Below, one piece after another: positions 1,960 to 54,493 of a DNA stretch of 64,000 bases. Within the stretch, counting starts at the first letter, position 1. Each line of letters opens with the position of its first letter. This stretch comes from Bacillota bacterium. GTDB lineage: Bacteria > Bacillota > Clostridia > TANB77 > CAG-465. The stretch lies in assembly GCA_023460235.1 (NCBI GenBank), contig JAEWRE010000043.1, forward strand, positions 42-64,041, in the 5' to 3' direction. Below the pieces are notes generated by a model. The model was not told the origin of the DNA, did no database searches, and was given only the letters and a program-made list of their open reading frames with translations. The position numbers and the translations under genes are program-made.

Positions 1960-1973
1960 TATAAATTTTTTTA

Positions 1974-2011
1974 AAAGTGAATGGTTTAATTTAAACTATT
2001 CACTTTTTGTT
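1974..2011 (+). terminator. Rho-independent terminator (16-bp stem AAAGTGAATGGTTTAA/TAAACTATTCACTTT, then TTTTG).
   Basis: Inverted repeat read directly, followed by a T-run. Confidence 0.6.
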
Positions 2012-2038
2012 GACAAAAGTTTATAGAAAGTATAAAAT
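2010..2038 (+). promoter_or_regulatory. Sigma-A-like promoter: -35 TTGACA (2010-2015), 17-bp spacer, -10 TAAAAT (2033-2038).
   Basis: Consensus hexamers read directly; located 29 bp upstream of the RBS of the first pilin-like gene. Confidence 0.5.
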
Positions 2039-2066
2039 ATACCTATGATATAAATAGGGTGAATAT

Positions 2067-2564
2067 ATGAAAAAAACTAGTAATTTAATAATAAAAAAAG
2101 GTATAACACTTCTTGCACTTACAATTACAATTGCAGTTATCTTGATTCTTGCATCGACAATAGTCTTAAGTTCAAATGATATTATAGCTAAAACTAAAAA
2201 GTCAGAATTTGCAAAAGAAGTATATACAATACAGACTTTAGTTAAACAATATAAATTTAAAAATAATGTTTATCCGATTGATGGAAGCATTGAGATTACA
2301 CTAAGTGAACTTGATCAAAATTCAGTATCACAATTTTCTAATGAGCTGACATATTCTACTGGAAAAATAACGTTAGAATACATAGATTTATACGAAGCTG
2401 ATGTTGAAAATACAGTTAGAGGTAATAAAAAAAGTGGTAATCAAAAAGATGTATACCTGGTATCTAATGATACTGGTAGGGTATATTATTTAAATGGACA
2501 AAAAATATCCGGGACTGTATATTATACTCTTACAGATGAATTAAAAGAATTAATTGGAAAATAA
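2067..2564 (+). CDS. Prepilin-like protein (class III signal peptide MKKTSNLIIKKG|ITLLALTITIAVILILA), 165 aa; short paralog of the next two genes.
   Basis: RBS AGGGTG. N-terminal K-rich leader, Gly, then a ~20-aa hydrophobic helix. Shared motifs YKxKNxxYPI and xDTGRVYY with ORFs 2576 and 3642. Confidence 0.65.
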   Translation: MKKTSNLIIKKGITLLALTITIAVILILASTIVLSSNDIIAKTKKSEFAKEVYTIQTLVKQYKFKNNVYPIDGSIEITLSELDQNSVSQFSNELTYSTGKITLEYIDLYEADVENTVRGNKKSGNQKDVYLVSNDTGRVYYLNGQKISGTVYYTLTDELKELIGK

Positions 2565-2575
2565 ACGGAGGAAAT

Positions 2576-3628
2576 ATGAAAAAAGGAATTTCTTTGATAG
2601 CATTACTTACTACAGTTGCTATAATAATTATTCTTGTTACTGCTGTATCTGTTTCAGGTGCTAAAACATTAAACGACTCAAAGAAAATACAATTTGCTTC
2701 TGAGATTGCATATATTCAAGAATTAGTTAATTCATATAAAGCTAAAAATGGTAACTATCCTATAAGTGACGAATATACATTTTCAACTCTTAATGTTGAA
2801 CCAAGTGCATTAACTGAGCAATTTAAAGATGAAACACTAAATGAAAATAATATTAAACTATATAAGGTTAGTACAGAACTAATTGGTGCAAATGAACTAA
2901 AATATGGAAATTTGAAAATTCCTGAGGATGTATATCTATTATCTAAAGATACAGGAAGAGTGTACTATGCTAATAGCGTTTTAATAGATAAAAAATACTA
3001 TTATACATTAACTGATGATCTCAAGAAAATAATAAACTATACAGCAGTAAATGATGAAGTGAATGCTAATGCTGTGGTTTTTGAATATCCTAATACTGAA
3101 TGGACTAATGTTCCACTTAATTTAAATATAAAGATACCAGCTAGTTATATAAATGTTAATGTAAATATAGCTAAAGAAACCGGAAATGCTAGTGTTTCTA
3201 GTACTAAAACTGAAAACAATTATAATATATATGAGATTAGAAATATGCAGGAAAATTATATAGTTCATGTATCATATAAAGAAAATGATTCAGTACAAAC
3301 TGTTCAAGTAAAGACTTTTAGCGTGTCGAATTTTGATAAAATAGCACCTACATACAAAGTTAGTAATGTGAAAACTGTTATTGACCCATCAACTTCAAAA
3401 CAGTATAGATATATAGATATAAGTGAAATAAATGATAATTTAAGTGGAGTAAAAAGCATAAAGTATGAAAATAATAAAATAGAAGATGGAAATGTACTAG
3501 GCTATTTTACTGATAAAGGTATTGAAGTTAAGAATAATATAATAACAGTAAATGATGGAGTGTCTACAATAACATTTTTTATTGTAGATAAAGCAGGAAA
3601 TTATAAATATCAATATATTGAATTGTAA
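2576..3628 (+). CDS. Large (modular) prepilin-like protein, 350 aa: MKKG|ISLIALLTTVAIIIILV N-terminus, pilin-like core, ~200-aa C-terminal extension.
   Basis: RBS GGAGG. Paralogous to 2067 and 3642. Confidence 0.65.
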   Translation: MKKGISLIALLTTVAIIIILVTAVSVSGAKTLNDSKKIQFASEIAYIQELVNSYKAKNGNYPISDEYTFSTLNVEPSALTEQFKDETLNENNIKLYKVSTELIGANELKYGNLKIPEDVYLLSKDTGRVYYANSVLIDKKYYYTLTDDLKKIINYTAVNDEVNANAVVFEYPNTEWTNVPLNLNIKIPASYINVNVNIAKETGNASVSSTKTENNYNIYEIRNMQENYIVHVSYKENDSVQTVQVKTFSVSNFDKIAPTYKVSNVKTVIDPSTSKQYRYIDISEINDNLSGVKSIKYENNKIEDGNVLGYFTDKGIEVKNNIITVNDGVSTITFFIVDKAGNYKYQYIEL

Positions 3629-3641
3629 AGAGGTGAATTAA

Positions 3642-4697
3642 TTGAAAAAAGGTATAACATTAGTATCAGTATTAATAGCAGTAGCGGTAATTTTTATCCT
3701 TGTTACTTCAATAACAATATCTGGAATTTCAACAGTAAATAACTCAAAAAAAATGTCACTTTCATCTGAAATTGCAATGTTAAAAAATGCTTCCGATTCA
3801 TATAAAATAAAAAATGATGGAGAATATCCTATATCAGATGCTTTACTACTTGATGTGTCAAATGTTAGTAGTAATTCAATTAATCAATTCTCAGATGAAA
3901 CTATTGAAGATAATAAAATACTTCTTTATCAAATTGATTATAACAAAATAAGTGTTGGTGATTTGAAATATGGTAAATTAAAAAATGGTGATAATGATAC
4001 ATATGTGATTTCTAAAAAAACTGGTAAAGTGTATTATGCAAAGGGAATAGAAATTGGCGGTGTTACTTATTTTTATATTCAAAACAATTCTGAAGAATTA
4101 TTAAATAATGATAAGAACATTACCAATCCAGCTATTATATTTGAACAAAGTAATATTAAACCAACAAATGAAGATGTAACTATTAAGATAAAAGTGCCTG
4201 TTAATTATATTGTACAAGATGTAGCAGTAGAGAATAATATTATTACACAAAGCACCACTGAATCAACATATAACATATATGAATATACAGTTTCAGCAAA
4301 TTGTACAATTTCAGTAAAATATAAAATAACTTCAAATGATCAAGTTATTGAAACAAAGTATAATCTAACAAATATTGATAAAGTACCGCCAGTTTTGACG
4401 GTTCAAGATGCTTCACAAACATTAACACAAAATAGTAATGGAGAAAATATTGCATTTTTTACATTTACCCAGAAAATGGATGCTAATAGTGGATTAGAAG
4501 TGGTAAAATTTGTTAATTATAAAGTTGAAAAGGATATAGATAAATTTTTTGAAAACAATGGTACAAAAGTCACTGGTGATAAAATAAGTATAGGTAAGGG
4601 CGTTAGAGTAATAACTGTATATGCTAGAGATAAGGCAGGAAATGGGGCAGTTTTATATGTAAATGTTCTATCTTCAATTTATGATGCATTAATATAA
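3642..4697 (+). CDS. Large (modular) prepilin-like protein, 351 aa: MKKG|ITLVSVLIAVAVIFILV; paralog of 2576.
   Basis: TTG start with RBS AGAGGTG. Same architecture as 2576. Confidence 0.6.
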   Translation: MKKGITLVSVLIAVAVIFILVTSITISGISTVNNSKKMSLSSEIAMLKNASDSYKIKNDGEYPISDALLLDVSNVSSNSINQFSDETIEDNKILLYQIDYNKISVGDLKYGKLKNGDNDTYVISKKTGKVYYAKGIEIGGVTYFYIQNNSEELLNNDKNITNPAIIFEQSNIKPTNEDVTIKIKVPVNYIVQDVAVENNIITQSTTESTYNIYEYTVSANCTISVKYKITSNDQVIETKYNLTNIDKVPPVLTVQDASQTLTQNSNGENIAFFTFTQKMDANSGLEVVKFVNYKVEKDIDKFFENNGTKVTGDKISIGKGVRVITVYARDKAGNGAVLYVNVLSSIYDALI

Positions 4698-11628: not shown

Positions 11629-13299
11629 ATGGCGAGTTGTCTTGGAATATATTCTAATCAAGATTTTGTAAAATATGCAAAAGTTTCAATAGATTCAAAT
11701 AAAGAATTCAAAGTAGAAGCATATGGAACAAGATTTGTTAGTAATAATGACAGAAAAATATTAATAAGCAATATAATTGATGAAACTAACTCAAAAGATT
11801 TGCCAATAATAATAAACCCTGAATTTGATAAATTCATAGATGTACAGGTTTACGAACAAGCAAAAAGTAAAGCATATATAGATGATGTAATTAGAATGGA
11901 ATTTGAAGCTTGGTGTGAAAAAAACAAAACCGAACCTTCAAAATTTTCATATGTTTATGCTTTATCTGACTATAAAACAACTGAAAATAAGTATAGTGGT
12001 ATAATAAATATAACTGAGGATACTGAAATACGTAATTTAAATGATGCTGTTGGACAAAACTTAACTTCAATAGTGCCATCTGAATTAACACTTCATAAAG
12101 TTGTGCCACAAGACTATGAAAATTATGTATTAGTAAATCTTGATGATAAACTTTCAATATCAACAATTATAAATAAAAAATTAGCTGAAATTAAGACTTA
12201 TGATGTGGGTATGGAGCAAATATTTTCTGATCTTAGATTAAGATTAGGTTCTTATCAAAAAGCATATGAGGCTTGTAAACAAGTCAACGTATATACTGAG
12301 GGTAAGTCTCAAAATGATCCAACTATAGAAGTATTAACTGAGCAAACTTTACAAGAAGTATTAAAGTATGTTTTAGTAATGGTAAATAAAAACAGAAAAG
12401 ATATAACTAAAGTACTTATAACTGGTAGTGGTACTGTATTTACAAATATAGATATACTATTTACTGAATTCTTAGACATGAAGAGTGAGATTTTAAAGCC
12501 TGAATTTTTAGTTAATTCTGGTAGTATTAAGAATCTTGCTGAAGTACTTGAAACTATACATGCTATTTCACTTGCTTGTAATTATTTAAAACCAGATCAT
12601 TCTCAAATAGACTATGTTGGTAAAAAAATGGCAAGTAAATTCTCATTAGAAACATTACTTTCAGTATTTAAAAAGAAAGATCCTAGTGAACTTCCACGTA
12701 AAGTTAAATTTGATAAGCCAAAGGCAGATAATAACAAATCAAATGAGGGTGCTCAAAATAAAAATGTTATTTACGCTTTTGATTTTGAAAAGTTTAGCAA
12801 ATATGCTATAAATGGTGTAATAGTTATAGCTGTTATATTAGTAACTTATATTGTATTTAACATATTCTATTCAAATAATATAAACAAGATGCTTACTGCT
12901 ATAGCGGATCAAGATACAAAAGTATCTTCTAAAATATCTGAAGTTAACAATGATATTAGTTATATAAATTCTAATGTATCACAATATAAGACTATAAACA
13001 CTCAAGTATCTGATTTAGTAACTCAGATTGAAACTGGTTCATTAGGTAAAATAACTACATATAATGTTGCTAGTTTTTTACAACAAGTTATAAAAATAAT
13101 ACCAAAGACAATACAACTTAAATCAATAAGTTCAGATGATAATAAAAATGTGAAAATTTCAGCACAATCATCAAGCTATGCAGACCTTGGTTACTTTGTA
13201 GCACAATTAAAGCTAGAAGGAGTATTAAATTCTGTAAAAATAAATAGCATACAAAATGGTGAGACAATTTTAGTAGAGATTGGTGGTGAGTTACCGTAA
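11629..13299 (+). CDS. pilMN: Fused PilM-PilN-like T4P assembly protein: actin-like ATPase domain (~330 aa) plus C-terminal TM and periplasmic coiled-coil PilN-like part.
   Basis: RBS AAGGGAG. N-terminus 'CLGIYSNQDFVKYA' resembles the PilM 'GxDIGSxxIK' motif. TM helix at aa ~395-420. Heads a T4P gene block. Confidence 0.6.
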   Translation: MASCLGIYSNQDFVKYAKVSIDSNKEFKVEAYGTRFVSNNDRKILISNIIDETNSKDLPIIINPEFDKFIDVQVYEQAKSKAYIDDVIRMEFEAWCEKNKTEPSKFSYVYALSDYKTTENKYSGIINITEDTEIRNLNDAVGQNLTSIVPSELTLHKVVPQDYENYVLVNLDDKLSISTIINKKLAEIKTYDVGMEQIFSDLRLRLGSYQKAYEACKQVNVYTEGKSQNDPTIEVLTEQTLQEVLKYVLVMVNKNRKDITKVLITGSGTVFTNIDILFTEFLDMKSEILKPEFLVNSGSIKNLAEVLETIHAISLACNYLKPDHSQIDYVGKKMASKFSLETLLSVFKKKDPSELPRKVKFDKPKADNNKSNEGAQNKNVIYAFDFEKFSKYAINGVIVIAVILVTYIVFNIFYSNNINKMLTAIADQDTKVSSKISEVNNDISYINSNVSQYKTINTQVSDLVTQIETGSLGKITTYNVASFLQQVIKIIPKTIQLKSISSDDNKNVKISAQSSSYADLGYFVAQLKLEGVLNSVKINSIQNGETILVEIGGELP

Positions 13300-14099
13300 T
13301 GCAAAGAGATTTAGTTAAATTTATAGTTAGTACAGTTATATTAGTAGCTTTAATTGCGGTAATAGTATTTTCATTAATAAGTGGTATTGATTTAGGTTTT
13401 GCAAAAATATCATCTTTTAGTGGTTTACAACAACAACATGATAATATTTCTACAAAACAAACATCATTATCTCAAAAGGAAACTTCATATAAAACAACGC
13501 TTCAAAATCTTGAAAATGCAAAAACAGAGTATTCTAAAGAAAAAGCGAAGTATGAAGCAATAAGTAATGAAACTATAAACATGATAAAAGAAGCCACAAC
13601 TGAAGAAAAATATACTTTAGAGTATATGTGGATAAGACTTGGAAATTATGCTAAAATACATAACTTATCTATACTTTTAGTTGAACCAGGTGGAAGTTCT
13701 ACAAGTACGACAACAGGCGGTGCAGGCACACCTACAGGTACAACAGGTACTGGAACAAGCACAGGCACAGGCACTGGAACACCTACTGGAACTAATACTT
13801 CTACAGGAACTGGTACTAATGCTACTACTGGAACAAGCACAGGTACAGGTACACCAACTGGTACTACTGGTACTACTGGTACTAATACAACAGGCACACC
13901 ATCTGGAAACACAACAACTGCTTCTGATGTCTTAAGAATTGAAATTACAGGTAGTTATCTAAATGTTTCTGATTTCATATTTGATGTAGAAAATGATAAA
14001 GAACTTAGATTTAAACTTGACAATATAACAATGGAACTTGTTTCTGGTACAACAATAAAAACAACATTTAATGTAAAAAATATGGTTATTAACAAATAA
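13299..14099 (+). CDS. pilO: PilO-like T4P assembly membrane protein (N-terminal TM, coiled coil) with an internal ~80-aa Thr/Gly-rich low-complexity tract.
   Basis: Position after pilMN; topology; TG-rich tract at 13681-13920. Confidence 0.5.
   Translation: MQRDLVKFIVSTVILVALIAVIVFSLISGIDLGFAKISSFSGLQQQHDNISTKQTSLSQKETSYKTTLQNLENAKTEYSKEKAKYEAISNETINMIKEATTEEKYTLEYMWIRLGNYAKIHNLSILLVEPGGSSTSTTTGGAGTPTGTTGTGTSTGTGTGTPTGTNTSTGTGTNATTGTSTGTGTPTGTTGTTGTNTTGTPSGNTTTASDVLRIEITGSYLNVSDFIFDVENDKELRFKLDNITMELVSGTTIKTTFNVKNMVINK
13681..13920 (+). repeat. Low-complexity coding repeat (GTxGTx encoded by acwggwac-type DNA).
   Basis: Seen directly. It also creates long spurious ORFs on both strands (13646-13912 minus, 13681-13935 plus). 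Confidence 0.8.
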
Positions 14100-15083: not shown

Positions 15084-15623
15084 ATGAAAGCAAAAAAAGG
15101 TATTTCTTTAATCGTATTAGTTATAACTATAATTGTTATAATTATCCTTGCTGGTGCAGTTATTTTGAACATGACTAAAAATAATCCAATGGATTCAGCA
15201 AAAGTAGCAAAATTGGTTCAACAAAGGGATTCATTAGAATCAGCTACATTGCTTTATGCTCAACAAATAATGGCAGCAACTCAAGGTGAATATGGTTTAT
15301 CAGACATTTTACAAGGCAATGCAGTAAAATCAGCAGCAGGAGTAACACCAGTAGTTAAATATACTGGTATAACAACTGGAACTGCACTTACAAATGTTAC
15401 TGGTGCATCTACAACAGCTACATTTAAAGTTGCTGATTCTACTGTAACAAAAGACACTATAGATTTTGCTTTACCAGAATCAGGTGTTTCTGGTGCATAT
15501 TGGGCTGTTGATACAGCAAGTGGAAAATTCTATTTAGTAGTTCCAGCAGCTACAACAAATCCAACATGGTTAGATCTTACAAATCAATCATTAGCAGCAT
15601 TTGTTGTTAAATTAGCATCTTAA
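15084..15623 (+). CDS. pilA: Probable major pilin (prepilin MKAKKG|ISLIVLVITIIVIIILAG; 179 aa, Ala/Thr/Gly-rich, no Cys).
   Basis: Strong RBS TAAGGAGG. Higher-expression-like codon usage and locally higher GC than neighbours. Located before the pilD-like and pilB genes. Confidence 0.6.
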   Translation: MKAKKGISLIVLVITIIVIIILAGAVILNMTKNNPMDSAKVAKLVQQRDSLESATLLYAQQIMAATQGEYGLSDILQGNAVKSAAGVTPVVKYTGITTGTALTNVTGASTTATFKVADSTVTKDTIDFALPESGVSGAYWAVDTASGKFYLVVPAATTNPTWLDLTNQSLAAFVVKLAS

Positions 15624-15769: not shown

Positions 15770-16588
15770 ATGACACTTTTTCTAAATATATTTGTTATAT
15801 TTTGTATATTTGTAATTGGAAGTTTATTTGGTAGCTTTTATTCGCTTGCTACATATAGGATTCCTCAAAAACAAGATATTGTTGCAACTAGATCATATTG
15901 TCCAAATTGTAAACACAGATTAGAATTCTTTGATTTAATACCTGTACTTAGCTTCATTTTATGTGGTGGTAAGTGCAGATATTGTCATGATAAAATAAGT
16001 CCAAGATATTTTTTACTTGAAGTAGGACATGGATTGTTATTCGTGGCTATCTATTTGATTTTAACTGTATTCTTTGGAATTTCTATTGAAGCTCTTGTAA
16101 TATTTATGTGTATAGCAATTATGTATTCAGTTATATTTGTAATAATTGGATCAAATATAATGGCAAAAAAAATGAATATTTATAAAAAGAGTGAAAAAGC
16201 TAATTCTAAAAAGGGTGTATTTATATCTGAGTTAGTTATTGCATCAATATTATTTACAATACTTCTTACAACTTCTTTTATTGTGGCAAGAAATTATACA
16301 AATAAAGCAAATAACAGCATAATAAGAGCTAATGCAGTATCTGTTGGAATTAAAAATGCAGAAATTGCACTTAGTACTAAATATGATAGTCTTACTACAT
16401 TTACAAATGTTGAAACTGTGGAAAACATACAGTATACAACGACTGTATCTGTGAATAAATATTCTGATGAAAATTCTTTAAAAGAAGATTTTGTAAAGAA
16501 AATAACTGTTAGCGTAAAATATAATATATCTGGCGAAGAATATGAATTTAAATTTGATACTTTGAAAGGTAGGTCTGCTGTAACATGA
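15770..16588 (+). CDS. PilD N-terminal (Zn-ribbon/TM 'DiS_P_DiS'-like) domain fused in-frame to a pilin-like module (KKG|VFISELVIASILF, which does have Glu+5). No peptidase A24 catalytic domain is present.
   Basis: RBS GGGGGAG. 'GSLFGSFYSLATYRIP' and 'CPNCKH...CGGKCRYC' align to the PilD N-terminus. There are no membrane Asp residues and no GGGD-type motif afterwards. The junction lies across an A8 tract (16165-16172), with an in-frame ATG at 16172. Confidence 0.55.
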   Translation: MTLFLNIFVIFCIFVIGSLFGSFYSLATYRIPQKQDIVATRSYCPNCKHRLEFFDLIPVLSFILCGGKCRYCHDKISPRYFLLEVGHGLLFVAIYLILTVFFGISIEALVIFMCIAIMYSVIFVIIGSNIMAKKMNIYKKSEKANSKKGVFISELVIASILFTILLTTSFIVARNYTNKANNSIIRANAVSVGIKNAEIALSTKYDSLTTFTNVETVENIQYTTTVSVNKYSDENSLKEDFVKKITVSVKYNISGEEYEFKFDTLKGRSAVT

Positions 16589-20073: not shown

Positions 20074-21411
20074 ATGCCAAATTACAAATATAGGGTCATT
20101 TTTGAAGACGGAAGAATTGGAAGAGGAAAAATAATTGCATCAAGTAGAATAAGTGCTATAGAAAAACTGAAAATGGAAAAAAATCAGCCTATTATGATAA
20201 AGAGAATGGGCGGAGAAAAGACTAAATATAATACAAGAGTTGACTATAGTAAATTAAAGAAACCTACCGTTGAAAGAAGAAAAAAGAAGAATAGACCAAA
20301 AATCAATATAATGAAATTAACTCTTGATGACCTAAAAAAATTGGACTTGCACCCTTTCGCAAGAGTAAAAACAAAAGATATTGTAACATTTGTAAACAAT
20401 ATATATATATTAAAAAAAGCAAAATTTAATAACGTTCAAGCATTAGAAGCTGTTTATCAAGGAACTGAAAATCCTGCATTTAAAGATATAGTTGAAGATT
20501 TATTAATTGGAGTTCAATCTGGTGAAAAATTAAACACTATAATGGAAGGCTATCCAAAAGTTTTTCCACCGATGTTTGTAAACTTTGTTAGGGTTGGAGA
20601 AGAGTCTGGTAATTTAGATACTGCTTTACTATATGCAAGAGATTATGTTGAATCATCTCAAAAATTAAATAAAAGAATAAAAGCAGCAATAATTCCTAGG
20701 GTATTACAATTTGTTGGTATAATGATTGCAATGTTTGTTGCGCTTATAATAGGTGTACCAATACTAAAAGATGTATATACGATGTTTGGTTCTGAGCAAG
20801 AAATTCCAAAAGCGACTATGATTGGATTTTCTATTGCAGAATGGTTAATAGCAAATTGGTATGTACCAACCATTATAATTGCATTGCTTGTTGGAGCATT
20901 TATATTTTATATTCGTACTCCAAGAGGCAGATATAATTGGGACAAATTCTTAGTCACAGGACCTGTAGTTGGTAAATTAATAGACAATATAATAGTTAGT
21001 AACTTCTTTCAAGCGATGTTACTAAACTTAAAAAATGGTATGAGAATTCAAGAAAGTCTTGAAGTATCTAAAAATGTAACTAACAATTATTATTTTCTAT
21101 CTGCAGTAGAAGCAGGTAAGGTAAACATACAATCAGGTGAATCGTGGATAGAACCATTTGATGAAAAGAATCTTTTTAAACCTATGGTATCAGAAATGTT
21201 AAACATAGGTATGAAAACTGAACTTTCTGAAATGATGGATAAAGTAAATGAATATATTAAGACAGAAATTGATGAGTCTCTTGCAAAATTTGTAAAAGTA
21301 CTACCAGATATTACTTATTTATTTGTTGGTATTGCAATGATAGCATTAGTTATTACAGTTGTAGTTCCACTTACAAATGTATATATGGGAGGATTTATTT
21401 CACTACAATAA
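20074..21411 (+). CDS. pilC: T4P platform protein of the PilC/GspF family (cytoplasmic N-terminal domains plus 3 TM segments).
   Basis: RBS AGGAGGTG; 445 aa; GspF-like topology. Confidence 0.75.
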   Translation: MPNYKYRVIFEDGRIGRGKIIASSRISAIEKLKMEKNQPIMIKRMGGEKTKYNTRVDYSKLKKPTVERRKKKNRPKINIMKLTLDDLKKLDLHPFARVKTKDIVTFVNNIYILKKAKFNNVQALEAVYQGTENPAFKDIVEDLLIGVQSGEKLNTIMEGYPKVFPPMFVNFVRVGEESGNLDTALLYARDYVESSQKLNKRIKAAIIPRVLQFVGIMIAMFVALIIGVPILKDVYTMFGSEQEIPKATMIGFSIAEWLIANWYVPTIIIALLVGAFIFYIRTPRGRYNWDKFLVTGPVVGKLIDNIIVSNFFQAMLLNLKNGMRIQESLEVSKNVTNNYYFLSAVEAGKVNIQSGESWIEPFDEKNLFKPMVSEMLNIGMKTELSEMMDKVNEYIKTEIDESLAKFVKVLPDITYLFVGIAMIALVITVVVPLTNVYMGGFISLQ

Positions 21412-21991: not shown

Positions 21992-22199
21992 ATATTCACC
22001 AGTCCTTTACCTTTTAATACATGTATATTCAAAATAGATATTTATATGAAAAATAATATAAACAATTAAAATATAAAATACATATATTTTGTGTTAAATA
22101 GAATATAAAAATATTGCTATAACTCTAAATATATATAAATTTATTTGATTTTATGTATTTTTGTGATATAATATCTCTTGTAAAACTTTGGAGGTAAAC

Positions 22200-24968
22200 A
22201 TGAAATTAATTGAAAAAATATTTGGTTCATATAGTAAAAGAGAACTTTCAAAAATTGAGCCTATAGTAAATAAAATTTTAGCATTAGATGAAGATATGCA
22301 AAAATTAACAGATGATGAATTAAAAAATAAAACTAATGAATTCAAAGGAAGACTTTCAAAAGGCGAAACATTAGATGATATATTAGTAGAAGCATATGCA
22401 GTTGTTAGAGAAGCTAGTAATAGAGTATTTGAGAAAAAACCATTTAAGACTCAAGTTATAGGTGGAATAGTTCTTCATCAAGGAAGAATATCTGAAATGA
22501 AAACTGGTGAAGGTAAAACATTATGTGCTGCGTTTCCGTTATATTTAAATGCTCTTTTATCTAAAGGTTCACATTTAGTAACTGTAAATGATTATCTTGC
22601 AAAAAGCCAAGGAATTTTAATGGGTAAACTATATAAATTTTTAGGGTTATCAACAGGAATAGTTCTTTCTGGAATGACTCCAGATCAAAAAAAAGTTGCT
22701 TATGCATGTGATATTACTTATGGTACTAATAACGAATTCGGATTTGATTACCTAAGAGATAATATGGCAATGAGAAAAGAAGAAATGGTTCAAAGAGAAT
22801 TAAATTATGCTATTGTCGATGAAATAGATAGTATATTAATTGATGAAGCAAGAACACCTTTAATAATATCTGGTATGGTAAACAAAAAAAGCGATCTTTA
22901 TGAAAGAGCAGATAAGTTTGCAAAAGGACTTAGTGTAAGAACAATTGTTGAAAATGATGATAAAGTATATGATGCTAAAGATGAAGAATATGATTATATA
23001 GTTGATCTTAAGGCTCATACAGTAGCACTTACAGAAACAGGTACAAAAAAGGCTGAAAAATATTTTAGTATTACTTCATTAAGTGATTTTGATAATTTAG
23101 CTATATCTCATCACATTAATCAAGCAATTAGAGCTTATGGATTAATGAAAAAAGAAAAAGACTATATAGTTAAAGATGGAGAAGTTATAATTGTTGATGA
23201 ATTCACAGGAAGACTTATGAGTGGTAGAAGATATAGTGATGGACTACATCAAGCTATTGAAGCTAAAGAAGGTGTAAAAATTGCATCTGAGAGTCAAACA
23301 CTTGCTACTATTACTTTCCAAAACTACTTTAGATTATATTCTAAACTAGCAGGTATGACTGGTACTGCTAAAACTGAAGAAGATGAATTTAAAGGTATAT
23401 ACAAACTAGATGTAGTAGAAATACCTACAAATAAAGAAGTTATAAGACAAGATTTAAATGATGTAATATATAAGACTCAAAAAGCTAAATATAATGCAAT
23501 TGTTGAAGATGTAAAAGAAAGTTATGAAAAAGGACAACCAGTTCTTGTTGGTACAGTTTCAATTGATAAATCTGAAATAATTAGTAGTTTACTTTCAAAA
23601 GCAAAAGTTCCTCATCAAGTTTTAAATGCTAAATATCATGAAAAAGAAGCAGAAATTATTGCCCAAGCTGGTAAATACAAAACTGTAACAATTGCAACAA
23701 ATATGGCTGGACGTGGAACAGATATATTACTTGGAGGAAATGCTGAATTCTTAGTAAAAAAAGAACTTGAAAAATTAGGATATTCAAATGAAGTAATTGA
23801 GATGGCTGTGACTCCTATACATTATGAAAATGAAGAAGTTATAAAAGCAAAATCAGATATTGAAATTATTGAAAAAAAATTAAAACCAGAACTTGAAGAA
23901 GATCGTAAGAAAGTTATAGAAGCAGGCGGTTTAAAGATTATAGGTAGTGAAAGACATGAATCTAGAAGAATAGACAATCAGTTAAGAGGACGTGCTGGTC
24001 GTCAAGGTGATATAGGTCAAAGTAAGTTCTATATATCATTAGAAGATGACTTGATGAAACTATTTGGATCTGAAAGAATGATTTCAATGATTGAGATGCT
24101 AGGTCTTCCAGAAGATACACCTATTGAACAAAAAATGTTAAATGGTGCTATTGAGACAGCTCAAAAGAAAGTAGAAGGAAGAAACTACTCAATAAGAAAG
24201 AATGTACTTGAATATGACGATGTAATGAACAAACAAAGAGAAATTATATATTCTCAAAGAAGAGATGTTCTTAACGCGGAACATATAGATAATATCGTTA
24301 TTAATCTTGCTAAAGCAAAAACTAATAAAATAGTAAAAACATATTTTGATGATGCAGTTTCAATTGATGCAGTTGATTTTAGTTCACTAAACTCAGTTTT
24401 ATTAAATTTATTTGGTGAAGATAATATTTTGACTAAATCAGATATTGATATTATGGAAGTTGAAGATATTCAAAATATACTTATTGAAAAAATAAAAGCT
24501 ATATATGAATCTAAACATGAAGAAGCTAAGAAATTAAATTCAGAAGATGTTTTAAATGGCATAGAAAGATACTTAATTCTTAATACAGTAAATGAAAGAT
24601 GGATGGATCATATTGATAATATAACTGGTCTAAAAGAAGGAATTGGACTTAGAGCATATGCTCAAACAAATCCTATTGAAGCTTATAAGATTGAATGTTT
24701 CAATATGTTTGAAGAACTTATTGATACTATTCAAGAAGAATCTACAAAAGCAGTATTTTCTGTTAGACCAAATGTAAATAACAATCTACAAAAAGTTGTA
24801 CAACTTGAAAATGAGAGTTCTATTACAAATATTACAACTAATGAAAATGGAAGTAATGGAAAAGTAAAAAGAGAACCTATAAAAGTTGACAAAAAGATTG
24901 GTAGAAATGATCCATGTCCTTGTGGAAGTGGAAAGAAATACAAACAGTGTTGTGGAAAAGATGAATAA
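22200..24968 (+). CDS. secA: Preprotein translocase ATPase SecA (C-terminal Zn finger CPCGSGKKYKQCCG).
   Basis: ATG at 22200 with RBS GGAGG 5 nt upstream (the track TTG at 22188 is less likely). SecA motifs throughout; 922 aa. Confidence 0.95.
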   Translation: MKLIEKIFGSYSKRELSKIEPIVNKILALDEDMQKLTDDELKNKTNEFKGRLSKGETLDDILVEAYAVVREASNRVFEKKPFKTQVIGGIVLHQGRISEMKTGEGKTLCAAFPLYLNALLSKGSHLVTVNDYLAKSQGILMGKLYKFLGLSTGIVLSGMTPDQKKVAYACDITYGTNNEFGFDYLRDNMAMRKEEMVQRELNYAIVDEIDSILIDEARTPLIISGMVNKKSDLYERADKFAKGLSVRTIVENDDKVYDAKDEEYDYIVDLKAHTVALTETGTKKAEKYFSITSLSDFDNLAISHHINQAIRAYGLMKKEKDYIVKDGEVIIVDEFTGRLMSGRRYSDGLHQAIEAKEGVKIASESQTLATITFQNYFRLYSKLAGMTGTAKTEEDEFKGIYKLDVVEIPTNKEVIRQDLNDVIYKTQKAKYNAIVEDVKESYEKGQPVLVGTVSIDKSEIISSLLSKAKVPHQVLNAKYHEKEAEIIAQAGKYKTVTIATNMAGRGTDILLGGNAEFLVKKELEKLGYSNEVIEMAVTPIHYENEEVIKAKSDIEIIEKKLKPELEEDRKKVIEAGGLKIIGSERHESRRIDNQLRGRAGRQGDIGQSKFYISLEDDLMKLFGSERMISMIEMLGLPEDTPIEQKMLNGAIETAQKKVEGRNYSIRKNVLEYDDVMNKQREIIYSQRRDVLNAEHIDNIVINLAKAKTNKIVKTYFDDAVSIDAVDFSSLNSVLLNLFGEDNILTKSDIDIMEVEDIQNILIEKIKAIYESKHEEAKKLNSEDVLNGIERYLILNTVNERWMDHIDNITGLKEGIGLRAYAQTNPIEAYKIECFNMFEELIDTIQEESTKAVFSVRPNVNNNLQKVVQLENESSITNITTNENGSNGKVKREPIKVDKKIGRNDPCPCGSGKKYKQCCGKDE

Positions 24969-24973
24969 TGGGA

Positions 24974-25006
24974 AAGCCCTAGAATGTGTGAATTCTAGGG
25001 CTTTTT
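24974..25006 (+). terminator. Rho-independent terminator (AAGCCCTAGAAT...ATTCTAGGGCTT, then TTT).
   Basis: 12-bp GC-containing stem plus T-run just after the secA stop. Confidence 0.75.
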
Positions 25007-25183
25007 CAGACCGCAATACAAAAAAATAGTTTGTTAATATGAAGAAATTATTACACTTAATAACAAATATTTATATATTTTAACAAAATAATATATAAAG
25101 TATCAAAAATGTATAAAAAAGTATTGAAAAATGTTTTTGTTGATGTTAATCTATAATTATATAACTATGAGGTGTTTTTTTGT

Positions 25184-27916
25184 ATGAACAATATTAATAA
25201 AAAGATTGTGGCTCAACATAATATTACTTTAAAAAGTGGAATTTCACTTATAACATTGATAATCACTATAATTGTGATTATTATTCTTACATCTGTTATC
25301 TTAATATCCTTAAATCAAAGTAGCATCATGGCAAATGCAAAAGATGCCGTAATAGAAAATAATTTTTCGACAATACAGGAAGAGATAGAATATTATAAGT
25401 TAAATAAATATTATTCTGATCATACTACACTTGATCTATATCCACTGGAAAAAGATGAGGATGGAAATTATATCACTATGGATAATTTACCAGAAGAAAC
25501 TAAAAATAATTTACCAATGGAATTAAAGATGAATTTATATGATACTGAAAAGCATGAATTAGAGACATATAATAATCTTCCAGATATTAGTTATTTAGAC
25601 TACAAGAAATTTTATAAAATAGATACAAGTCTTTTAACTACAGCAGGAGCTTATGGTCAAGATTTATACATATATATATATGATTTAAAATATGTAGTAT
25701 TTAATATAAGCGGTATAAAATACAAAGGTAATACTGAATACAGTATTATACCTCTTGGAGGAGGAGGTAGTCCAGAATATATAGCACTTACAAATAATAC
25801 ATTTAGACTTGATACTGATGGTAATTTAAAAGTTCTTGGACAAATAAATTCAATAACTGGTGAAACCTCAGATGAATACAAAAAGTATAGTGGAATTAGA
25901 GAGTTTACTATACCTTCAGTGATTGAGAATCCTAGTGAAGTAAAAAAAGTATATTTTTCTTTAGGTACAGCATATGTAATCGATAAAGATGATAATTTAT
26001 GGGCATGGGGAAATAATCCATATAATAAGCTTGGGCTTGGAAACTCATTTACAATAACTGTCCCAAATAAGATAAATGAAAATATAAAAGTGAACAATGA
26101 AAGTATAAAAGTAAAAAATGTTTGGGCTGGTGTATCAAACACATGGATAGTGGATACAGAAAATAGGGTATGGGCTTGTGGAAGTAATACGAGCGGATCA
26201 TTTGGAATAGGAAATACTAATTACTATTCTGGATATATAAGAGTGGACAACTTAGATGGATCTAAAGTAAAAGAAATTATGCCTAATTTAAGTGATTCAA
26301 GGTATACTTTTGTGTTATATGATGATGGACGAGTTTTTGCATCTGGTTCTAATACATATGGAATTTTTGGTAAAAATAATACTACAAGTATTAAAACTTT
26401 TGAAGAATTAACAAGCTTCTATGGTGCAAAGAAAATTTTAGCAGGAGGAAATAGGACTACATTTATACTTAAAGATAATGGAGAACTTTATGGAGTTGGA
26501 AGTAATGTATTTGGAGGTCTAGGACTGCCAATAAGTGATAATACACTATATACAATTCCAGTAAAAATTGCATATAATGTTTCAGATATAAGCTATGTTG
26601 AATACTGGAGAGGAAGTGTGCGATATAAAACTGTAGATGGTGATATATATCAATCAGGTGTATTAAAATATGATAATTTAGGAGCACCACTATATGATCA
26701 ATACTTTAGAATGATAAATAATATTAATGATGTAGATTTATCTTTTGATTCAAATGAACTACTAATATCTAAAGGAAAGTTATATACAGTATTATATAAT
26801 TCTCAAGATGATCAATTGACAGCTACGGAGTATTCTACTTCATATTCAAATGTATCAAGTACGGAATCCTTTTATGGGATGAAGATTTTTAAGGCATCTG
26901 GAAAGCTGTATTTGGATTCATATCCAGATATAACTGCTGCAGGAAGTAGAGTAAGATTAACTCTAAAGAATGTATTTACAGGAGCTAAATTTGTACAAGG
27001 CGCAACAAATAATATAAGTATTGTAGATAAAAATTCTAATATATGGGAGAGTTTAACAAATAAAAATACTCAACTTTCGAATGTTAAGAAAATAATTTCT
27101 TCTAATACAGCCAAGTTTGCTCTTTTAAAAAATGGTGAACTCTATGCAAAAGGCGCTTCAACTACAGGTGGATGGGGAGATGCACTCGTAAAAACTAGTT
27201 ATACATTAATTACTAAAGATGGAACAACTCCTTTTAGTGTAAAAGATGTATATACATCAGTATATGGTAACAGTGCTATTTTCCTTACAAATGATAATGA
27301 ATTATATTGGTTTGGACATGATGCACATATATATCTACCTAATAAAGAAAATGGAGATATATTATATAATGACGGAAATTATGTTACAAAATATCCACAT
27401 AAAATAAATACTTTAGGATTAGATACTAATGTATTAACTAATATTGCTGATATAGTATATGATGTTAACTGGTCAGATTTTTATTCAAGAATTACATATG
27501 TATTAACAAATAGTGGAGAATTATATGTAACTGGAGATAGTTCCAAAACTACAGGACTTGGTAGTACTAGTACTAAATTTACCAAGATAACAGCATTTGG
27601 AAATGCAAAAGTAAAATCAATAAAATCATATCAAGGATGTACAATCGCATTGCTAGAAGATGGTAAAGTGTATGCCTGGGGATACAATACATATGGACAA
27701 TTTGGAGGTGGATATGTAATAGGAAATACCTATACAACACCACAAAGATTAAATATAAGCACTAACATAATAAAAATAACTTTAGGTGATGGATTTGCAC
27801 TTTTCTTAGCAAATGATGGAACTGTATATGGCAGTGGAAGAAATGAATATGGGCAACTTGGAAATGGTACTAATGTATCTATTGAAGGTTTTACGGAATG
27901 TAAGGAACTTGAATAA
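25184..27916 (+). CDS. Giant modular prepilin-like protein: class III-like signal (…NITLKSG|ISLITLIITIIVIIILTS) followed by a ~880-aa domain with at least 6 RCC1-like repeats (WGxNxxGQLGxG).
   Basis: ATG at 25184 with RBS GAGGTG 9 nt upstream. RCC1 signature repeated (AWGNNPYNKLGLGN, WACGSNTSGSFGIGN, YAWGYNTYGQFGGG, YGSGRNEYGQLGNG and others). Confidence 0.65.
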   Translation: MNNINKKIVAQHNITLKSGISLITLIITIIVIIILTSVILISLNQSSIMANAKDAVIENNFSTIQEEIEYYKLNKYYSDHTTLDLYPLEKDEDGNYITMDNLPEETKNNLPMELKMNLYDTEKHELETYNNLPDISYLDYKKFYKIDTSLLTTAGAYGQDLYIYIYDLKYVVFNISGIKYKGNTEYSIIPLGGGGSPEYIALTNNTFRLDTDGNLKVLGQINSITGETSDEYKKYSGIREFTIPSVIENPSEVKKVYFSLGTAYVIDKDDNLWAWGNNPYNKLGLGNSFTITVPNKINENIKVNNESIKVKNVWAGVSNTWIVDTENRVWACGSNTSGSFGIGNTNYYSGYIRVDNLDGSKVKEIMPNLSDSRYTFVLYDDGRVFASGSNTYGIFGKNNTTSIKTFEELTSFYGAKKILAGGNRTTFILKDNGELYGVGSNVFGGLGLPISDNTLYTIPVKIAYNVSDISYVEYWRGSVRYKTVDGDIYQSGVLKYDNLGAPLYDQYFRMINNINDVDLSFDSNELLISKGKLYTVLYNSQDDQLTATEYSTSYSNVSSTESFYGMKIFKASGKLYLDSYPDITAAGSRVRLTLKNVFTGAKFVQGATNNISIVDKNSNIWESLTNKNTQLSNVKKIISSNTAKFALLKNGELYAKGASTTGGWGDALVKTSYTLITKDGTTPFSVKDVYTSVYGNSAIFLTNDNELYWFGHDAHIYLPNKENGDILYNDGNYVTKYPHKINTLGLDTNVLTNIADIVYDVNWSDFYSRITYVLTNSGELYVTGDSSKTTGLGSTSTKFTKITAFGNAKVKSIKSYQGCTIALLEDGKVYAWGYNTYGQFGGGYVIGNTYTTPQRLNISTNIIKITLGDGFALFLANDGTVYGSGRNEYGQLGNGTNVSIEGFTECKELE

Positions 27917-27956
27917 TAAAGCATAGAGTAATATATATTAAAATTTAAACATAATA

Positions 27957-27996
27957 AAAACCAATTAAAATTAATAATAATTTTAATTGGTTTTTA
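27957..27996. terminator. Bidirectional terminator (AAAACCAATTAAAA...TTTTAATTGGTTTT).
   Basis: 14-bp inverted repeat between convergent genes. Confidence 0.6.
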
Positions 27997-28005: not shown

Positions 28006-30516
28006 TTAATCATTTTTCTTTATTGAAGGTGTTTCATAACTCTCTGTTATAGCTCCACCGGTTACAGCCGCATCATCTAAAGTAATATCATCATCAATTA
28101 CTATTTCAAAATCATCAAGATTTCCATTTGTTCCAACAATATCTCTATTTGCAAATACTTCTGACTCTTCTACTTCTGAGCCTTTTATTGGAGAAGTTCC
28201 AGGAAAATTACTTAAATTTTCTGATAATTTTGAAGATGTATTCACACCAAATAAAAAGTCATCTTTTTTGCTATCATCATCATTTATAGCTATTGTAGGT
28301 GTATCAGGTTTTGACATCATATACTTTTCAAAGTTGTACATTAAAGTATCAGCTTTTTCTTTATATTTTGAATCTAGGAATGTAACTTTTCCTTTTCCGT
28401 AAACTGTTTTACCTTTTGCATTCTTTGTTTTGTAGAAAATATCACCAAAACCTTGATCAGCAAGTTTGAACCATTCCATTCGAAATTTCTTTTCTTTTGT
28501 AAGAGTAGGGGTTGCAACTACATCTTTTGTTATATCAAATTTATAAGAAAAGTCTGGTATTTTTTCTTTACCAAAGGCTTTCTCCCAATATTCACTATCA
28601 TCTGGAACAGTATCACCAAAAACAATTTGAGTCTTTGTGTTTGCAAGAACAGTCTGTCTATAGTATGAAGTACCACTTTTCTCTAATTGTGATAAGTTTT
28701 GTAAAGCTATTGTAACGCCACATCTATACTTTCTAAATAGTGTAAACATTACTTCCATATCTTTTGTTATATATTCTGGGAACTCATCAATATATAAGAA
28801 ATGAGGAGTTCTTGAATCTTCATTACCTTTTCTTCTTAGTACTGCATCTTGGAATTGAAGTATAAAGAACATACCAAAAGCTTTTGCTTGAAGTATACCT
28901 AAATCACCTTTTCTAGAACATGCAGTAATTACTTGACCTGTTTCTAAAGCTTTATCAAAATCTATTATATTTTTCTTTCCACAAAGTGCTGCTTTTAAAC
29001 CAGGGTGTCTTATAAGGTTATTTAACTGAGTAATAGCTCCATATAGGAATTTCTCAGTATCTTTTCTACCACTTCCACGAGTACCTGGTATTTCATAACC
29101 ATTGATATTTAATGAAGGCTTGTAGAAATTCTTTTCAAAATATCTAATTAATAATTTATATTTTTGTTCAAGTTCTGGTACTTTCTTCATTTCTTCTGTC
29201 ATTTCTTCAACTGCATCAAAATTATATAATAGTTCTAGCATATCTTCTAAACTTGCAAGTTCACCATTATTAAGTAGAGGATACATTTCTTTTAATAATA
29301 TTGAAAGGTTTTGGAAAGCATCAATTGTAACTTGTGTAAAGAATGGATCTCCAGCTTTTCCACCACCAGTACTTTCATACATGGCATTTAAAACGTCTGA
29401 TACAATTGAAGCAACTTTAGCAGGATCCGGTATTGCAAATGGATTCATACTAAGTGTTGTTTCAGGAGCTGCTGGATCTATAGATAATACATCTAAATCA
29501 AAGTTTTTTGCCACTCCTACAAATTGAGAAATAAAGTTCCCATCATTTTCTATTACTGTTATACCTAAGTTCCTATAAACGACTTTTCCTGTTGAATTGT
29601 CAATATATTGAACTAAAGGTTTTATATTTTTCATGAATTCTTCTTCCATGCCACGTCTAGGCTTCAAATAGTTTAAAGAAAAATTCCTGTTTACAAATTC
29701 ATTTGTAAAAGGTCCACTCATATAAGCAATATCTTTTTTTAGCATTGAGTATGCCATTCTTTTTGAATATTCTCTAAAGAAGAATTTCTTCTCTAGGTCA
29801 AAAGCACTCATCGGTAATAATACAGTTGCAGTTTTACCAGTACCAGTAGCACCTTGTACTAATGTTGCTTCATAACGTTTCTTTTCAGGAACTATAACGG
29901 GTAATGATGAACCTTTTACTTTACAAATTACAGCTTCACAAGTAAATGCGCCATTTTCTTTTACGCCTGTAGATGAAGTCATACCAGAAAATGCTGCTAT
30001 AGATTTTACATCATCATCATCTCTCATTAAAGAAAGTACATATTCAATAACTCTAAATATTCCAATAAATGGAACTACGAAGCAAAGCGATCTAACAGCA
30101 GGAGCAAATAGTTCAGGATATAGTCTTAATACATCTTTATAGTTTGGAAGTTGTTCAAGTATCCACCAAATTCCATTATTTACCCACGTACATACCATTC
30201 CACCAAGTATTGTAGTAAATAATCCAAATGTTACAAAGTATACATTTACTTTTGTAGAATCGTCCTTTGGAATTCCAGAATTAACGTAAAAAGAAAATGC
30301 AAGAACTGGAAAGAACATAAATATAGCATATAAATATGGAGGAATATTATTTATAACTCTTAAATTTCCAACCATCAGACCAAGTATTTTTGATATCGAA
30401 ATAAGCATAACAAATGCTGTTAAAGCATAAAAGATATATGTTAATATTCTATCTGGTTTAGTCTTTATATGTAGTTTTTTAAATAAACTATCGATCAAAT
30501 ATATCACCACTTTCAA
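28006..30516 (-). CDS. Type IV coupling protein of the VirD4/TraG/TraD family (N-terminal TM helices, Walker A 'GATGTGKT', Walker B 'LYIDEF', TraG-D_C-like 'TIALQNLSQL').
   Basis: Motifs read directly; 836 aa. The start is uncertain (TTG without an obvious RBS). Confidence 0.6.
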   Translation of the reverse strand: MKVVIYLIDSLFKKLHIKTKPDRILTYIFYALTAFVMLISISKILGLMVGNLRVINNIPPYLYAIFMFFPVLAFSFYVNSGIPKDDSTKVNVYFVTFGLFTTILGGMVCTWVNNGIWWILEQLPNYKDVLRLYPELFAPAVRSLCFVVPFIGIFRVIEYVLSLMRDDDDVKSIAAFSGMTSSTGVKENGAFTCEAVICKVKGSSLPVIVPEKKRYEATLVQGATGTGKTATVLLPMSAFDLEKKFFFREYSKRMAYSMLKKDIAYMSGPFTNEFVNRNFSLNYLKPRRGMEEEFMKNIKPLVQYIDNSTGKVVYRNLGITVIENDGNFISQFVGVAKNFDLDVLSIDPAAPETTLSMNPFAIPDPAKVASIVSDVLNAMYESTGGGKAGDPFFTQVTIDAFQNLSILLKEMYPLLNNGELASLEDMLELLYNFDAVEEMTEEMKKVPELEQKYKLLIRYFEKNFYKPSLNINGYEIPGTRGSGRKDTEKFLYGAITQLNNLIRHPGLKAALCGKKNIIDFDKALETGQVITACSRKGDLGILQAKAFGMFFILQFQDAVLRRKGNEDSRTPHFLYIDEFPEYITKDMEVMFTLFRKYRCGVTIALQNLSQLEKSGTSYYRQTVLANTKTQIVFGDTVPDDSEYWEKAFGKEKIPDFSYKFDITKDVVATPTLTKEKKFRMEWFKLADQGFGDIFYKTKNAKGKTVYGKGKVTFLDSKYKEKADTLMYNFEKYMMSKPDTPTIAINDDDSKKDDFLFGVNTSSKLSENLSNFPGTSPIKGSEVEESEVFANRDIVGTNGNLDDFEIVIDDDITLDDAAVTGGAITESYETPSIKKND

Positions 30517-53923: not shown

Positions 53924-54292
53924 ATGAAAAAATCGAAAAAAATTATGTTAAGAATATTACCAGTTATGCTTTTATTAGTTATGGTTGTCGCTGGCAATGT
54001 ATTTGCTGCAAGTAGCCCTATAAATACAAATTTGGTTACTGGAACAAATAATGTTGGTACTCTTGATACTACAGTAAAAAAAGTTTGGAACTCAATTGCT
54101 TTAATTCTTCAAATACTTGCAATAGCTGCTGTTGTATTTGCTGGTGTTAGATATATGTTCTCATCTGCAGATGCTAAAGCTGATATAAAGAAAAGTATGG
54201 GAATATTAGCTGTTGGCGCTATACTTGTATTTGGTGCTACAACTATAATTAACTTCATAGTTACTTTAACAGAGGATGTAGTTAATAAGTAA
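53924..54292 (+). CDS. VirB2/TrbC-like conjugative pilin candidate: signal peptide plus two hydrophobic helices joined by 'RYMFSSADAKADIKKS'.
   Basis: RBS AAGGAGG; architecture and size (122 aa). Confidence 0.5.
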   Translation: MKKSKKIMLRILPVMLLLVMVVAGNVFAASSPINTNLVTGTNNVGTLDTTVKKVWNSIALILQILAIAAVVFAGVRYMFSSADAKADIKKSMGILAVGAILVFGATTIINFIVTLTEDVVNK

Positions 54293-54320
54293 TAGTATAT
54301 ATTTTAAGTTATAAGAAATG

Positions 54321-54345
54321 TCAGGTGTTACAACCTGATTTTTTT
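54321..54345 (+). terminator. Terminator (TCAGGT-6nt-ACCTGA-T7).
   Basis: Seen directly. Confidence 0.5.
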
Positions 54346-54464: not shown

Positions 54465-54493
54465 TTAAATAAGACAGAATAAGGAGATAAATT

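Follow-up and report, generated by a model that had tools for sequence, protein, structure and literature searches.

Modular type IV pilins are defined by Streptococcus sanguinis PilB, which carries a vWA module, and PilC, which carries a lectin module (Raynaud et al. 2021, PMC8179133; Shahin et al. 2023, PMC9934059), and processing by PilD has been demonstrated for PilB (PMC8179133; PMC9934059). Dataset S1 of Raynaud et al. 2021 (PMC8179133) also lists four singleton architectures that combine IPR012902 (N_methyl) with RCC1 (IPR000408/PF13540). PilX2, from the type IV pilus system T4P-2 of Nanosynbacter lyticus TM7x (Saccharibacteria), is a pilin-like “lollipop” with a seven-bladed RCC1 propeller; its non-canonical signal peptide was not predicted to be processed by PilD, deleting it cuts host binding by half, and the study puts it forward as the adhesin of T4P-2, analogous to PilY1 (PMC11623550). 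PilY1/PilC of diderm type IVa pilus (T4aP) systems is a large beta-propeller tip adhesin that is not itself a pilin and is seated on the minor-pilin complex PilHIJK. The PilY1 propeller is of family IPR008707 and not RCC1, and a review of type IV filaments (T4F) records PilY1 as absent from monoderms. Here, we analyzed a 64,000-nucleotide stretch of contig JAEWRE010000043.1 (GenBank assembly GCA_023460235.1; hereafter, the window) from an uncultured gut Clostridia bacterium, in which a gene at positions 25184 to 27916 encodes a 910-residue protein with a pilin-like N-terminus followed by RCC1 repeats.

On balance, we favor with modest confidence the reading that this is a modular type IV pilin-like protein, whose RCC1 propellers would sit at the filament tip as an adhesin. 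The protein consists of a pilin-like module (residues 1-197) followed by a domain that is not specific to type IV pilus biology. It has no match to IPR012902, on which the operational definition of modular pilins by Raynaud et al. 2021 is based.

A pilin-like N-terminal module joined to RCC1 repeats

The features of the gene are as follows.

25184..27916, + strand: coding sequence of the 910-residue pilin-like RCC1 protein, stop codon included
25170..25174, + strand: ribosome-binding site AGGTG, 9 nt before the ATG, read from the sequence
25184..25240, + strand: residues 1-19, basic leader peptide with Gly at -1; putative prepilin-peptidase cleavage site
25241..25408, + strand: residues 20-75, helix alpha1, with alpha1N at residues 20-43 and alpha1C at residues 47-75
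25409..25774, + strand: residues 76-197, small alpha/beta head with the conserved motifs YP[IL] and DYxKFYK[LI]D
25775..26863, + strand: residues 198-560, first RCC1-like repeat region, ~7 blades; scanned alone, PF25390 1.9e-42, PF13540 1.1e-17, PF00415 4.8e-17
26864..27913, + strand: residues 561-910, second RCC1-like repeat region, ~7 blades; scanned alone, PF25390 3e-28, PF13540 3.8e-25

The open reading frame listing opens this frame at a GTG (25172..27916, + strand), and the ATG at 25184 is the likely start. An earlier note on this DNA, made from the letters alone, had described a 910-residue open reading frame at 25184-27916. The listing, the translation and an identical protein (P0001) recorded in public assemblies, where it lies on a metagenome contig of 133.7 kb (ENA ERZ27268983), bear this out.

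The N-terminus reads MNNINKKIVAQHNITLKSG/ISLITLIITIIVIIILTSVILISL, where the slash, here and below, marks the putative cleavage site; the first part is the leader and the second alpha1N. The 19-residue leader has three Lys, lacks acidic residues and closes with Gly19, as expected of the short hydrophilic leader of a prepilin. None of the 24 residues that follow has a charged or strongly polar side chain. An alignment of 36 relatives was the basis of an AlphaFold2 model (pLDDT 86, pTM 0.78), which shows a 54-residue helix in two segments (22-45 and 47-75) with a kink at residue 46, in keeping with the ~21 hydrophobic post-cleavage residues within a ~50-residue helix that characterize pilins. 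The helix is followed by a beta-sheet with strands at 161-166, 169-180 and 183-189, and is modeled as packed on this head, whereas the leader (residues 1-20) is disordered in both AlphaFold2 models. The structure prediction called for in the earlier note thus yielded a helix and a beta-sheet head, but Foldseek matched no pilin with the head, and a Pfam scan of the head (residues 76-197) returned no match. The structural resemblance of the modeled head to pilins is therefore weak.

Evidence for pilin ancestry comes from conservation and from profile comparisons. There are ~45 full-length relatives of the protein at 33-69% identity, and those traced to genome records are from metagenome-assembled genomes (MAGs) of uncultured Clostridia or Bacillota. 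In the 36 aligned relatives, Gly-1 is almost invariant (Ala in two), and the mature N-terminus is conserved from residue +1. Their leaders are variable in sequence and run from 4 to ~30 residues; across relatives more generally, leader lengths of 4-39 residues and a median net charge of +3 were recorded. When a profile of residues 1-205 of this family was searched against PDB sequences, the top matches were type IV pilins, namely geopilin (6.3e-5) and PulG (1.2e-3), followed by S. sanguinis PilE1 (3.3e-3) and Thermus thermophilus PilA (0.01). The register is correct: Gly-1 falls on Gly-1, and the family position +5 (consensus Ala) falls on Glu5. Closer to home, hhalign aligned the module with the short pilin-like genes at 2067-4697 of the window over 136 columns that include the head (97% probability, E 6e-11), and BLASTP found 20 of 39 residues identical to the pilin-like protein encoded at 15084, across the cleavage site and alpha1N. 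Taken together, these comparisons support homology of the N-terminal module to the type IV pilin alpha1 helix, in register. The modular-pilin architecture claimed in the earlier note is supported in its RCC1 repeats and in the pilin homology of its N-terminal module; the signal is not canonical, and cleavage after Gly19 is what we infer, chiefly because Gly-1 is invariant.

The C-terminal part of the protein is certainly RCC1. Pfam reported PF25390 (WD40_RLD, RCC1-like domain; 1.2e-64, 219 bits against a cut-off of 150), and the two families that had been suggested for a check both scored above their curated cut-offs: PF13540 at 3.5e-39 (132 bits, cut-off 22) and PF00415 at 8.9e-30 (103 bits, cut-off 21.7). 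At least six blades had been counted by eye in the earlier note. The RCC1 assignment was right, but the count was an underestimate, as the AlphaFold2 model contains ~14 four-stranded blades between residues 198 and 905. The last three blades of the second region are the most canonical (WGYNTYGQFG, GRNEYGQLG). Residues 198-560 and 561-910 align to each other (E 8e-9). Foldseek searches of the PDB with the model matched UVR8, the RCC1-like domain (RLD) of HERC2, RPGR and RCC1, with the best E-value for UVR8 (7e-23). HERC2 RLD1 was matched over 327-331 columns at 3.9-4.5 Å, with a target-normalized template modeling (TM) score of 0.66-0.69. The simplest reading of the model is that the ~700 residues of repeats form two seven-bladed propellers, with the split placed by inference.

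In tblastn searches, matches covered only the RCC1 region, at 23-29% identity. These matches begin at query residue 140 or later, mostly at 198 or later, and never cover the pilin module. A phage or plasmid origin of the gene was accordingly rejected. Most of the matches (phage records H1-H8, plasmid records H11-H16) are to Clostridioides difficile jumbo phages and phage-plasmids of the phiCD211 group, over residues 198-905 at 24-29% identity, and some records of this group annotate the matched proteins as RCC1 proteins. The phage proteins might be receptor-binding proteins, which would hint that clostridial RCC1 propellers bind surface glycans.

A type IVa pilus operon and the surroundings of the gene

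A T4aP operon (pilMNO-pilB-pilT-pilC) lies 4-13 kb upstream of the gene. Its components, the other pilin-like genes of the window and the immediate neighbors are listed here.

2067..4697, + strand: three consecutive Glu5-less pilin-like genes (165, 350 and 351 residues; starts at 2067, 2576 and 3642), with N-terminal modules homologous to that of the RCC1 protein
11629..14099, + strand: pilM/N-like gene (556 residues) and pilO-like gene (266 residues, from 13299); PF05137 PilN 7.3e-6
15084..15623, + strand: 179-residue Glu5-less pilin-like gene in the T4aP operon, MKAKKG/ISLIVLVITIIVIIILAGAV
15770..16588, + strand: “PilD-like” gene with A24_N only (PF06750 1.8e-29, no PF01478), fused to an internal KKG/VFISE motif and a pilin-like C-terminus
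17290-18927, + strand: pilB, extension ATPase, T2SSE 9.3e-97, with MshEN
18944-20041, + strand: pilT, retraction ATPase, T2SSE 2.5e-34
20074-21411, + strand: pilC, platform protein, T2SSF 1.7e-30
22188-24968: secA, upstream neighbor of the RCC1 gene
24973..25006, + strand: 13-bp hairpin followed by a T-run after secA, likely a terminator separating the RCC1 gene from secA; read by eye
27956..27995, no strand assigned: AT-rich hairpin with a 17-bp stem between the convergent stops, possibly a bidirectional terminator; read by eye
28006-30516, - strand: VirD4/TraG-like gene with an N-terminal membrane domain, convergent with the RCC1 gene

The order of genes around the pilM/N-like and pilO-like genes is conserved at the orthologous loci of two other genomes (L028 and L029). 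The pilin encoded at 15084 is a candidate major pilin and, judging from its N-terminus, the likely polymerization partner of the RCC1 protein. Pilins of this type begin KKG/ISLIVLVITIIVIIILAGAVI, with Val at +5 and no Glu5. The same operon position is occupied in the other two genomes by one or two tandem Glu5-less pilins (L028 7989-9860; L029 9117-9875). A bacterial T4aP with a Glu5-less major pilin would be unusual. The three genes at 2067-4697 show weak matches to GspG, T2SSG and N_methyl in the correct register. Both genes of the 350-residue class (2576 and 3642) have C-terminal beta-rich extensions, and the gene at 2576 gives a weak match to an OmpL47-type barrel. Upstream of them, a large repeat protein with three ~150-residue repeats runs off the left end of the window and stops at 1959. 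Positions 1-4697 may thus form a minor-pilin or adhesin locus.

The PilD-like gene at 15770-16588 has relatives that NCBI names “prepilin peptidase”. Its product contains A24_N, two more membrane helices, the class III motif KKG/VFISE with a Glu5, and a pilin-like C-terminus of ~118 residues. Orthologous fusions are present in both other genomes (L028 10001-10807; L029 10001-10834), and 854 matches were found in Clostridia at E<=1e-5. The best 120 of the 854 are 45-69% identical, nearly all over at least 93% of the length of this gene product; all of these 120 contain PF06750 and none contains Peptidase_A24. The internal Gly, Val and Glu are 90-100% conserved in the family, and no conserved pair of Asp was seen in the membrane part of the aligned matches. 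According to the T4F review, cleavage universally depends on two Asp in the peptidase domain, and the methylase is the Cys-rich domain. We found no description of an A24_N-pilin fusion.

The RCC1 gene itself stands alone between secA and the convergent VirD4-like gene, 3.8 kb downstream of the end of pilC (21411), much as the earlier note had it (~4 kb). It looks monocistronic, as it is flanked by the two hairpins. A consensus terminator scan called no terminator, these two hairpins included. A consensus promoter scan found 38 promoter-like sites against 27.6 expected, and both scans are uninformative in DNA of 27% G+C. The window has a G+C content of 23-31% and contains the spoIIIA operon, secA, pth, smc and pheST. 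It is therefore chromosomal DNA of a spore-forming, Clostridia-like bacterium. We rejected a functional tie between the RCC1 gene and its VirD4-like neighbor because the locus of a 69%-identical ortholog has no VirD4, secA or pil gene close by. Some 23 kb past the VirD4-like gene, a type IV secretion-like cluster (53924-63806, + strand) lies among housekeeping genes. It includes two clear genes and a weak third with a TrbC/VirB2-type pilin domain, a TraG/VirB4-like P-loop ATPase (57745-59736) and a TrbL-like protein.

In the mechanism that we propose, the RCC1 protein would insert into the membrane with its leader on the cytoplasmic side. A prepilin peptidase, which may be encoded elsewhere in the genome, outside the window, would cut the leader off after Gly19. 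The upstream T4aP machine (PilB, PilT, PilC and PilMNO) would then pull the protein out of the membrane, and its alpha1N, a near-match to that of the operon pilin, would pack into the filament core. The protein would enter the filament first and so occupy the distal tip; this position is proposed because a propeller module of ~700 residues cannot fit along the shaft. At the tip, the propellers would act as a ligand-binding (adhesin) module.

A wider family and the rival explanations

To place the N-terminal module in a broader setting, we ran an exhaustive profile search of 1.84 billion cluster representatives (clusters at 50% identity). A word-indexed search with residues 1-245 had given three weak matches and did not return the query itself, and the exhaustive search was used in its place. 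It matched 31,426 proteins at E<=1e-3 and 7,872 at E<=1e-10; just 22, at E<=1e-30, are whole-module matches. The motif was present in 135 of 147 further proteins listed, with Gly at -1 in 134 of the 135. Position +5 in these 135 is Ala (122), Val (8), Thr (2), Ser (2) or Gly (1), and never Glu. We tabulated the 134 motif-bearing representatives that were long enough; their clusters differ by more than 50% overall. Gly-1 is 99% conserved among them, I1, T2, L3, I4, A5 and L6 are 90-100% conserved, and the first 19 mature residues (ITLIALVITIIVLLILAGV) are 76-100% conserved.

Domains in 57 long members include LRR_5 (BspA-type; 14), LRR_8 (7), RCC1 (4), GLUG (4), DUF285 (3) and Big_2 (3). The LRR_5, LRR_8, GLUG, Big_2 and DUF285 modules carried on related N-terminal modules are typical of adhesins. 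A weak N_methyl match was seen in just 4 of the 57. The source databases gave no name for the family beyond “RCC1 family protein/ComGC” from JGI. Literature searches found nothing on the conserved N-terminal peptide string and nothing linking pilin-like proteins with BspA.

Further members occur on the contig of the RCC1 gene and elsewhere. A paralog (P0003, 51% identity) lies on the same contig at L003 9796-12514, ~70 kb from the RCC1 gene. Its pilin helix (GGISLIVLLITIIVIIIL...) is in frame with the RCC1 body, but the ATG of the leader (MKMKKISKLNG) is shifted from that frame by one nucleotide, near AACGGGCGG. The same frameshift occurs in a second assembly of the region (L004) and may reflect a pseudogene, an error in assembly or phase switching. 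Convergent with P0003 is a gene for a 907-residue DUF4434 protein (L003 12593-15316, - strand) with the same N-terminus (KKG/ISLITLIITIIIVVILAG), so that in this genome the pilin-like module also heads a large domain of another kind. One JGI metagenome contig (L027 3948-12868) carries three tandem paralogs of 955-964 residues, which belong to a distant branch of the pilin-RCC1 family.

Several findings weigh against a pilus subunit. Glu5 is a hallmark of bacterial type IV pilins, and mature position +5 of the RCC1 protein is Thr. No curated pilin profile (PF07963, TIGR02532 and others) reaches its threshold on the protein, and NCBIfam gives only sub-threshold scores for GspG (17.6 bits against a cut-off of 88.85) and ComGC. 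The class III-like leader and helix described in the earlier note are thus present as a leader ending in Gly and an apolar run of 24 residues, but the Thr at +5 and the sub-threshold profiles set the signal apart. On its sequence, the N-terminus is pilin-like and not a canonical class III signal. The gene lies outside the pil operon, and its neighborhood changes between genomes: housekeeping genes surround the 69%-identical ortholog and other relatives, some of which form tandem triplets, and the closeness to pilC is not retained. No Peptidase_A24 catalytic domain was found in the window open reading frames scanned, nor among the called genes of the two 20-kb orthologous operon loci. The other pilin-like genes of the system also lack Glu5, with the exception of the pilin part of the A24_N fusion, so that the missing Glu5 does not mark the RCC1 protein as a tip subunit. 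Finally, the N-terminus is found on thousands of protein clusters, with several large proteins per genome, and such a spread could equally fit a general export or anchoring signal.

One alternative accepts cleavage of a class III-type signal and dispenses with long pili. The protein would be held by alpha1N in the membrane or would join other Glu5-less proteins in a short pseudopilus-like stalk, forming a surface-display system comparable to archaeal proteins with class III signals. This would account for at least 7,872 clusters (E<=1e-10) with varied large modules, several of them per genome, which is more than a tip obviously uses, for genes that are scattered and not in pil operons, and for the absence of Glu5 throughout, as in archaeal pilins. 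Yet a complete T4aP operon with PilB, PilT and PilMNO has short (120-280 residues) Glu5-less pilins in its major-pilin position, which implies a dynamic filament of such subunits, and alpha1N is conserved far more tightly than a mere anchor needs. We consider display without pili unlikely. The protein could also be an ordinary type II membrane protein with an uncleaved signal anchor, its pilin likeness ancestral or convergent and the pilus machine uninvolved. The earlier note had suggested abandoning the pilin reading if predictors called an ordinary Sec signal or anchor. Standard predictors would indeed call a signal anchor here, but with Glu5 absent and the pilin profiles below threshold, that test would wrongly turn out as a refutation. 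The sub-threshold profiles, the missing Glu5, the lack of a peptidase catalytic domain in the scanned open reading frames, the head without a pilin match in Foldseek and the relatives unlinked to pil genes all fit such an anchor. It leaves unexplained, in proteins less than 50% identical, a Gly at the junction of leader and helix in 99% and 90-100% conservation of the next six residues; moreover, the module homology to a pilin-sized protein of 165 residues extends beyond the helix, and the N-terminus matches that of the operon pilin. In a thick-walled monoderm, a membrane-tethered propeller would presumably be buried under the wall. This explanation appears improbable to us.

Secretion through Sec as a free, soluble RCC1 protein would require that signal peptidase I cut the chain, for example behind the ANA motif (Ala50-Asn51-Ala52) that lies nine residues past the hydrophobic stretch. 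In Sec signals, a conserved AxA site follows an h-region of ~7-15 residues (up to ~20 in Gram-positives). At 24 residues (family median 26), the apolar run here is too long for such an h-region, the AxA motif occurs in just 14 of the 134 representatives of the broad family, which argues against processing by signal peptidase I, and the region past the apolar stretch is modeled as a continuous helix packed on the head. Sec secretion is thus very improbable. Inspection of the C-terminus showed no cell-wall anchoring motif and no other anchoring motif.

Beyond the reading of the single protein as a modular tip pilin, we tentatively propose, without holding it to be the likelier outcome, that the RCC1 protein is a member of a very large class of bacterial type IV pilins, so far without annotation, which lack Glu5, share the consensus leader-G/ITLIALVITIIVLLILAGV and occur in uncultured Clostridia, mostly from gut samples. 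These would be assembled by a conserved T4aP operon whose “PilD” has lost its peptidase domain and is fused to the only Glu5-bearing pilin of the system, and dozens of them would serve as interchangeable modular tip subunits. If so, this lineage builds pili without the salt bridge between Glu5 and the N-terminus that is thought to drive docking of bacterial type IV pilins, and subunits with RCC1, BspA-type leucine-rich repeat (LRR), GLUG, Ig-like and DUF4434 modules would form a repertoire of adhesive tips.

The existence of modular pilins accounts for the many binding specificities that a simple filament can gain. If the protein and its relatives truly are pilus subunits, then Clostridia that are abundant but uncultured, many from guts, hold a large hidden repertoire of adhesion modules (RCC1 propellers, BspA-type LRRs and Ig-like domains) that current pilin signatures do not detect. 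It would also follow that bacterial T4aP subunits can polymerize without Glu5, which bears on the debated role of its salt bridge with the N-terminus in docking. If the N-terminus is only an anchor, the protein is an ordinary RCC1 surface protein. On its own, the RCC1 pilin is of moderate interest; its setting in a wider Glu5-less family is the more interesting aspect.

Comparison with known pilins and propeller adhesins

The RCC1 protein resembles S. sanguinis PilB and PilC in its plan, a bulky binding domain of generic type behind an N-terminal pilin module, in a monoderm host with a T4aP machine that includes PilT, and with a tip location proposed from its bulk. The signals of PilB and PilC are canonical class III signals with Glu5, and both genes lie in the pil locus. 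In contrast, the protein described here has Thr5 and no profile match, is encoded outside the operon, and carries an RCC1 module of ~700 residues instead of a vWA or lectin module. In S. sanguinis PilA, as in GspK/PilK, it is the capping subunit alone that lacks Glu5, whereas here the candidate major pilin lacks it too.

Archaeal class III-type signals have Gly or Ala at -1 and no conserved Glu5, and occur also on large functional proteins. Unlike the archaeal systems, the machinery here is of the bacterial T4aP type (PilMNO, PilT, and PilB with MshEN), and no archaeal-type profile match was obtained. A paper on a “conserved pilin” of TANB77 (PMC11680825) was considered as an account of this system and rejected, as it concerns a Tad-type cluster (TadZ, CpaE, CpaF and TadB/C).

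The protein is like PilY1 in devoting a large beta-propeller to tip adhesion, with the difference that its propeller is fused to a pilin and its placement is proposed. If this placement is right, a pilin-fused propeller would be the functional counterpart of PilY1 in monoderms, which lack it. PilX2 has a comparable design, with a pilin-like N-terminus, a C-terminal propeller of RCC1 repeats and a signal that is likewise non-canonical. In PilX2 the propeller is single and seven-bladed, and the gene sits in the pilin locus of a Patescibacterium, whereas the protein described here has ~14 blades and is encoded by an orphan gene in the MAG of a spore-forming Clostridia bacterium. The pilin-RCC1 proteins of Dataset S1 match IPR012902, the canonical motif; the RCC1 protein and its family do not, and a census based on IPR012902 would therefore miss them. 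Given PilX2 and these architectures, the view in the earlier note that an RCC1 propeller on a pilin is unusual was overstated. The pilin-RCC1 design has precedents. The protein departs from them in a Glu5-less signal common to the pilins of its system, a repeat region of ~14 blades, the orphan location of the gene and a huge family that pilin signatures miss.

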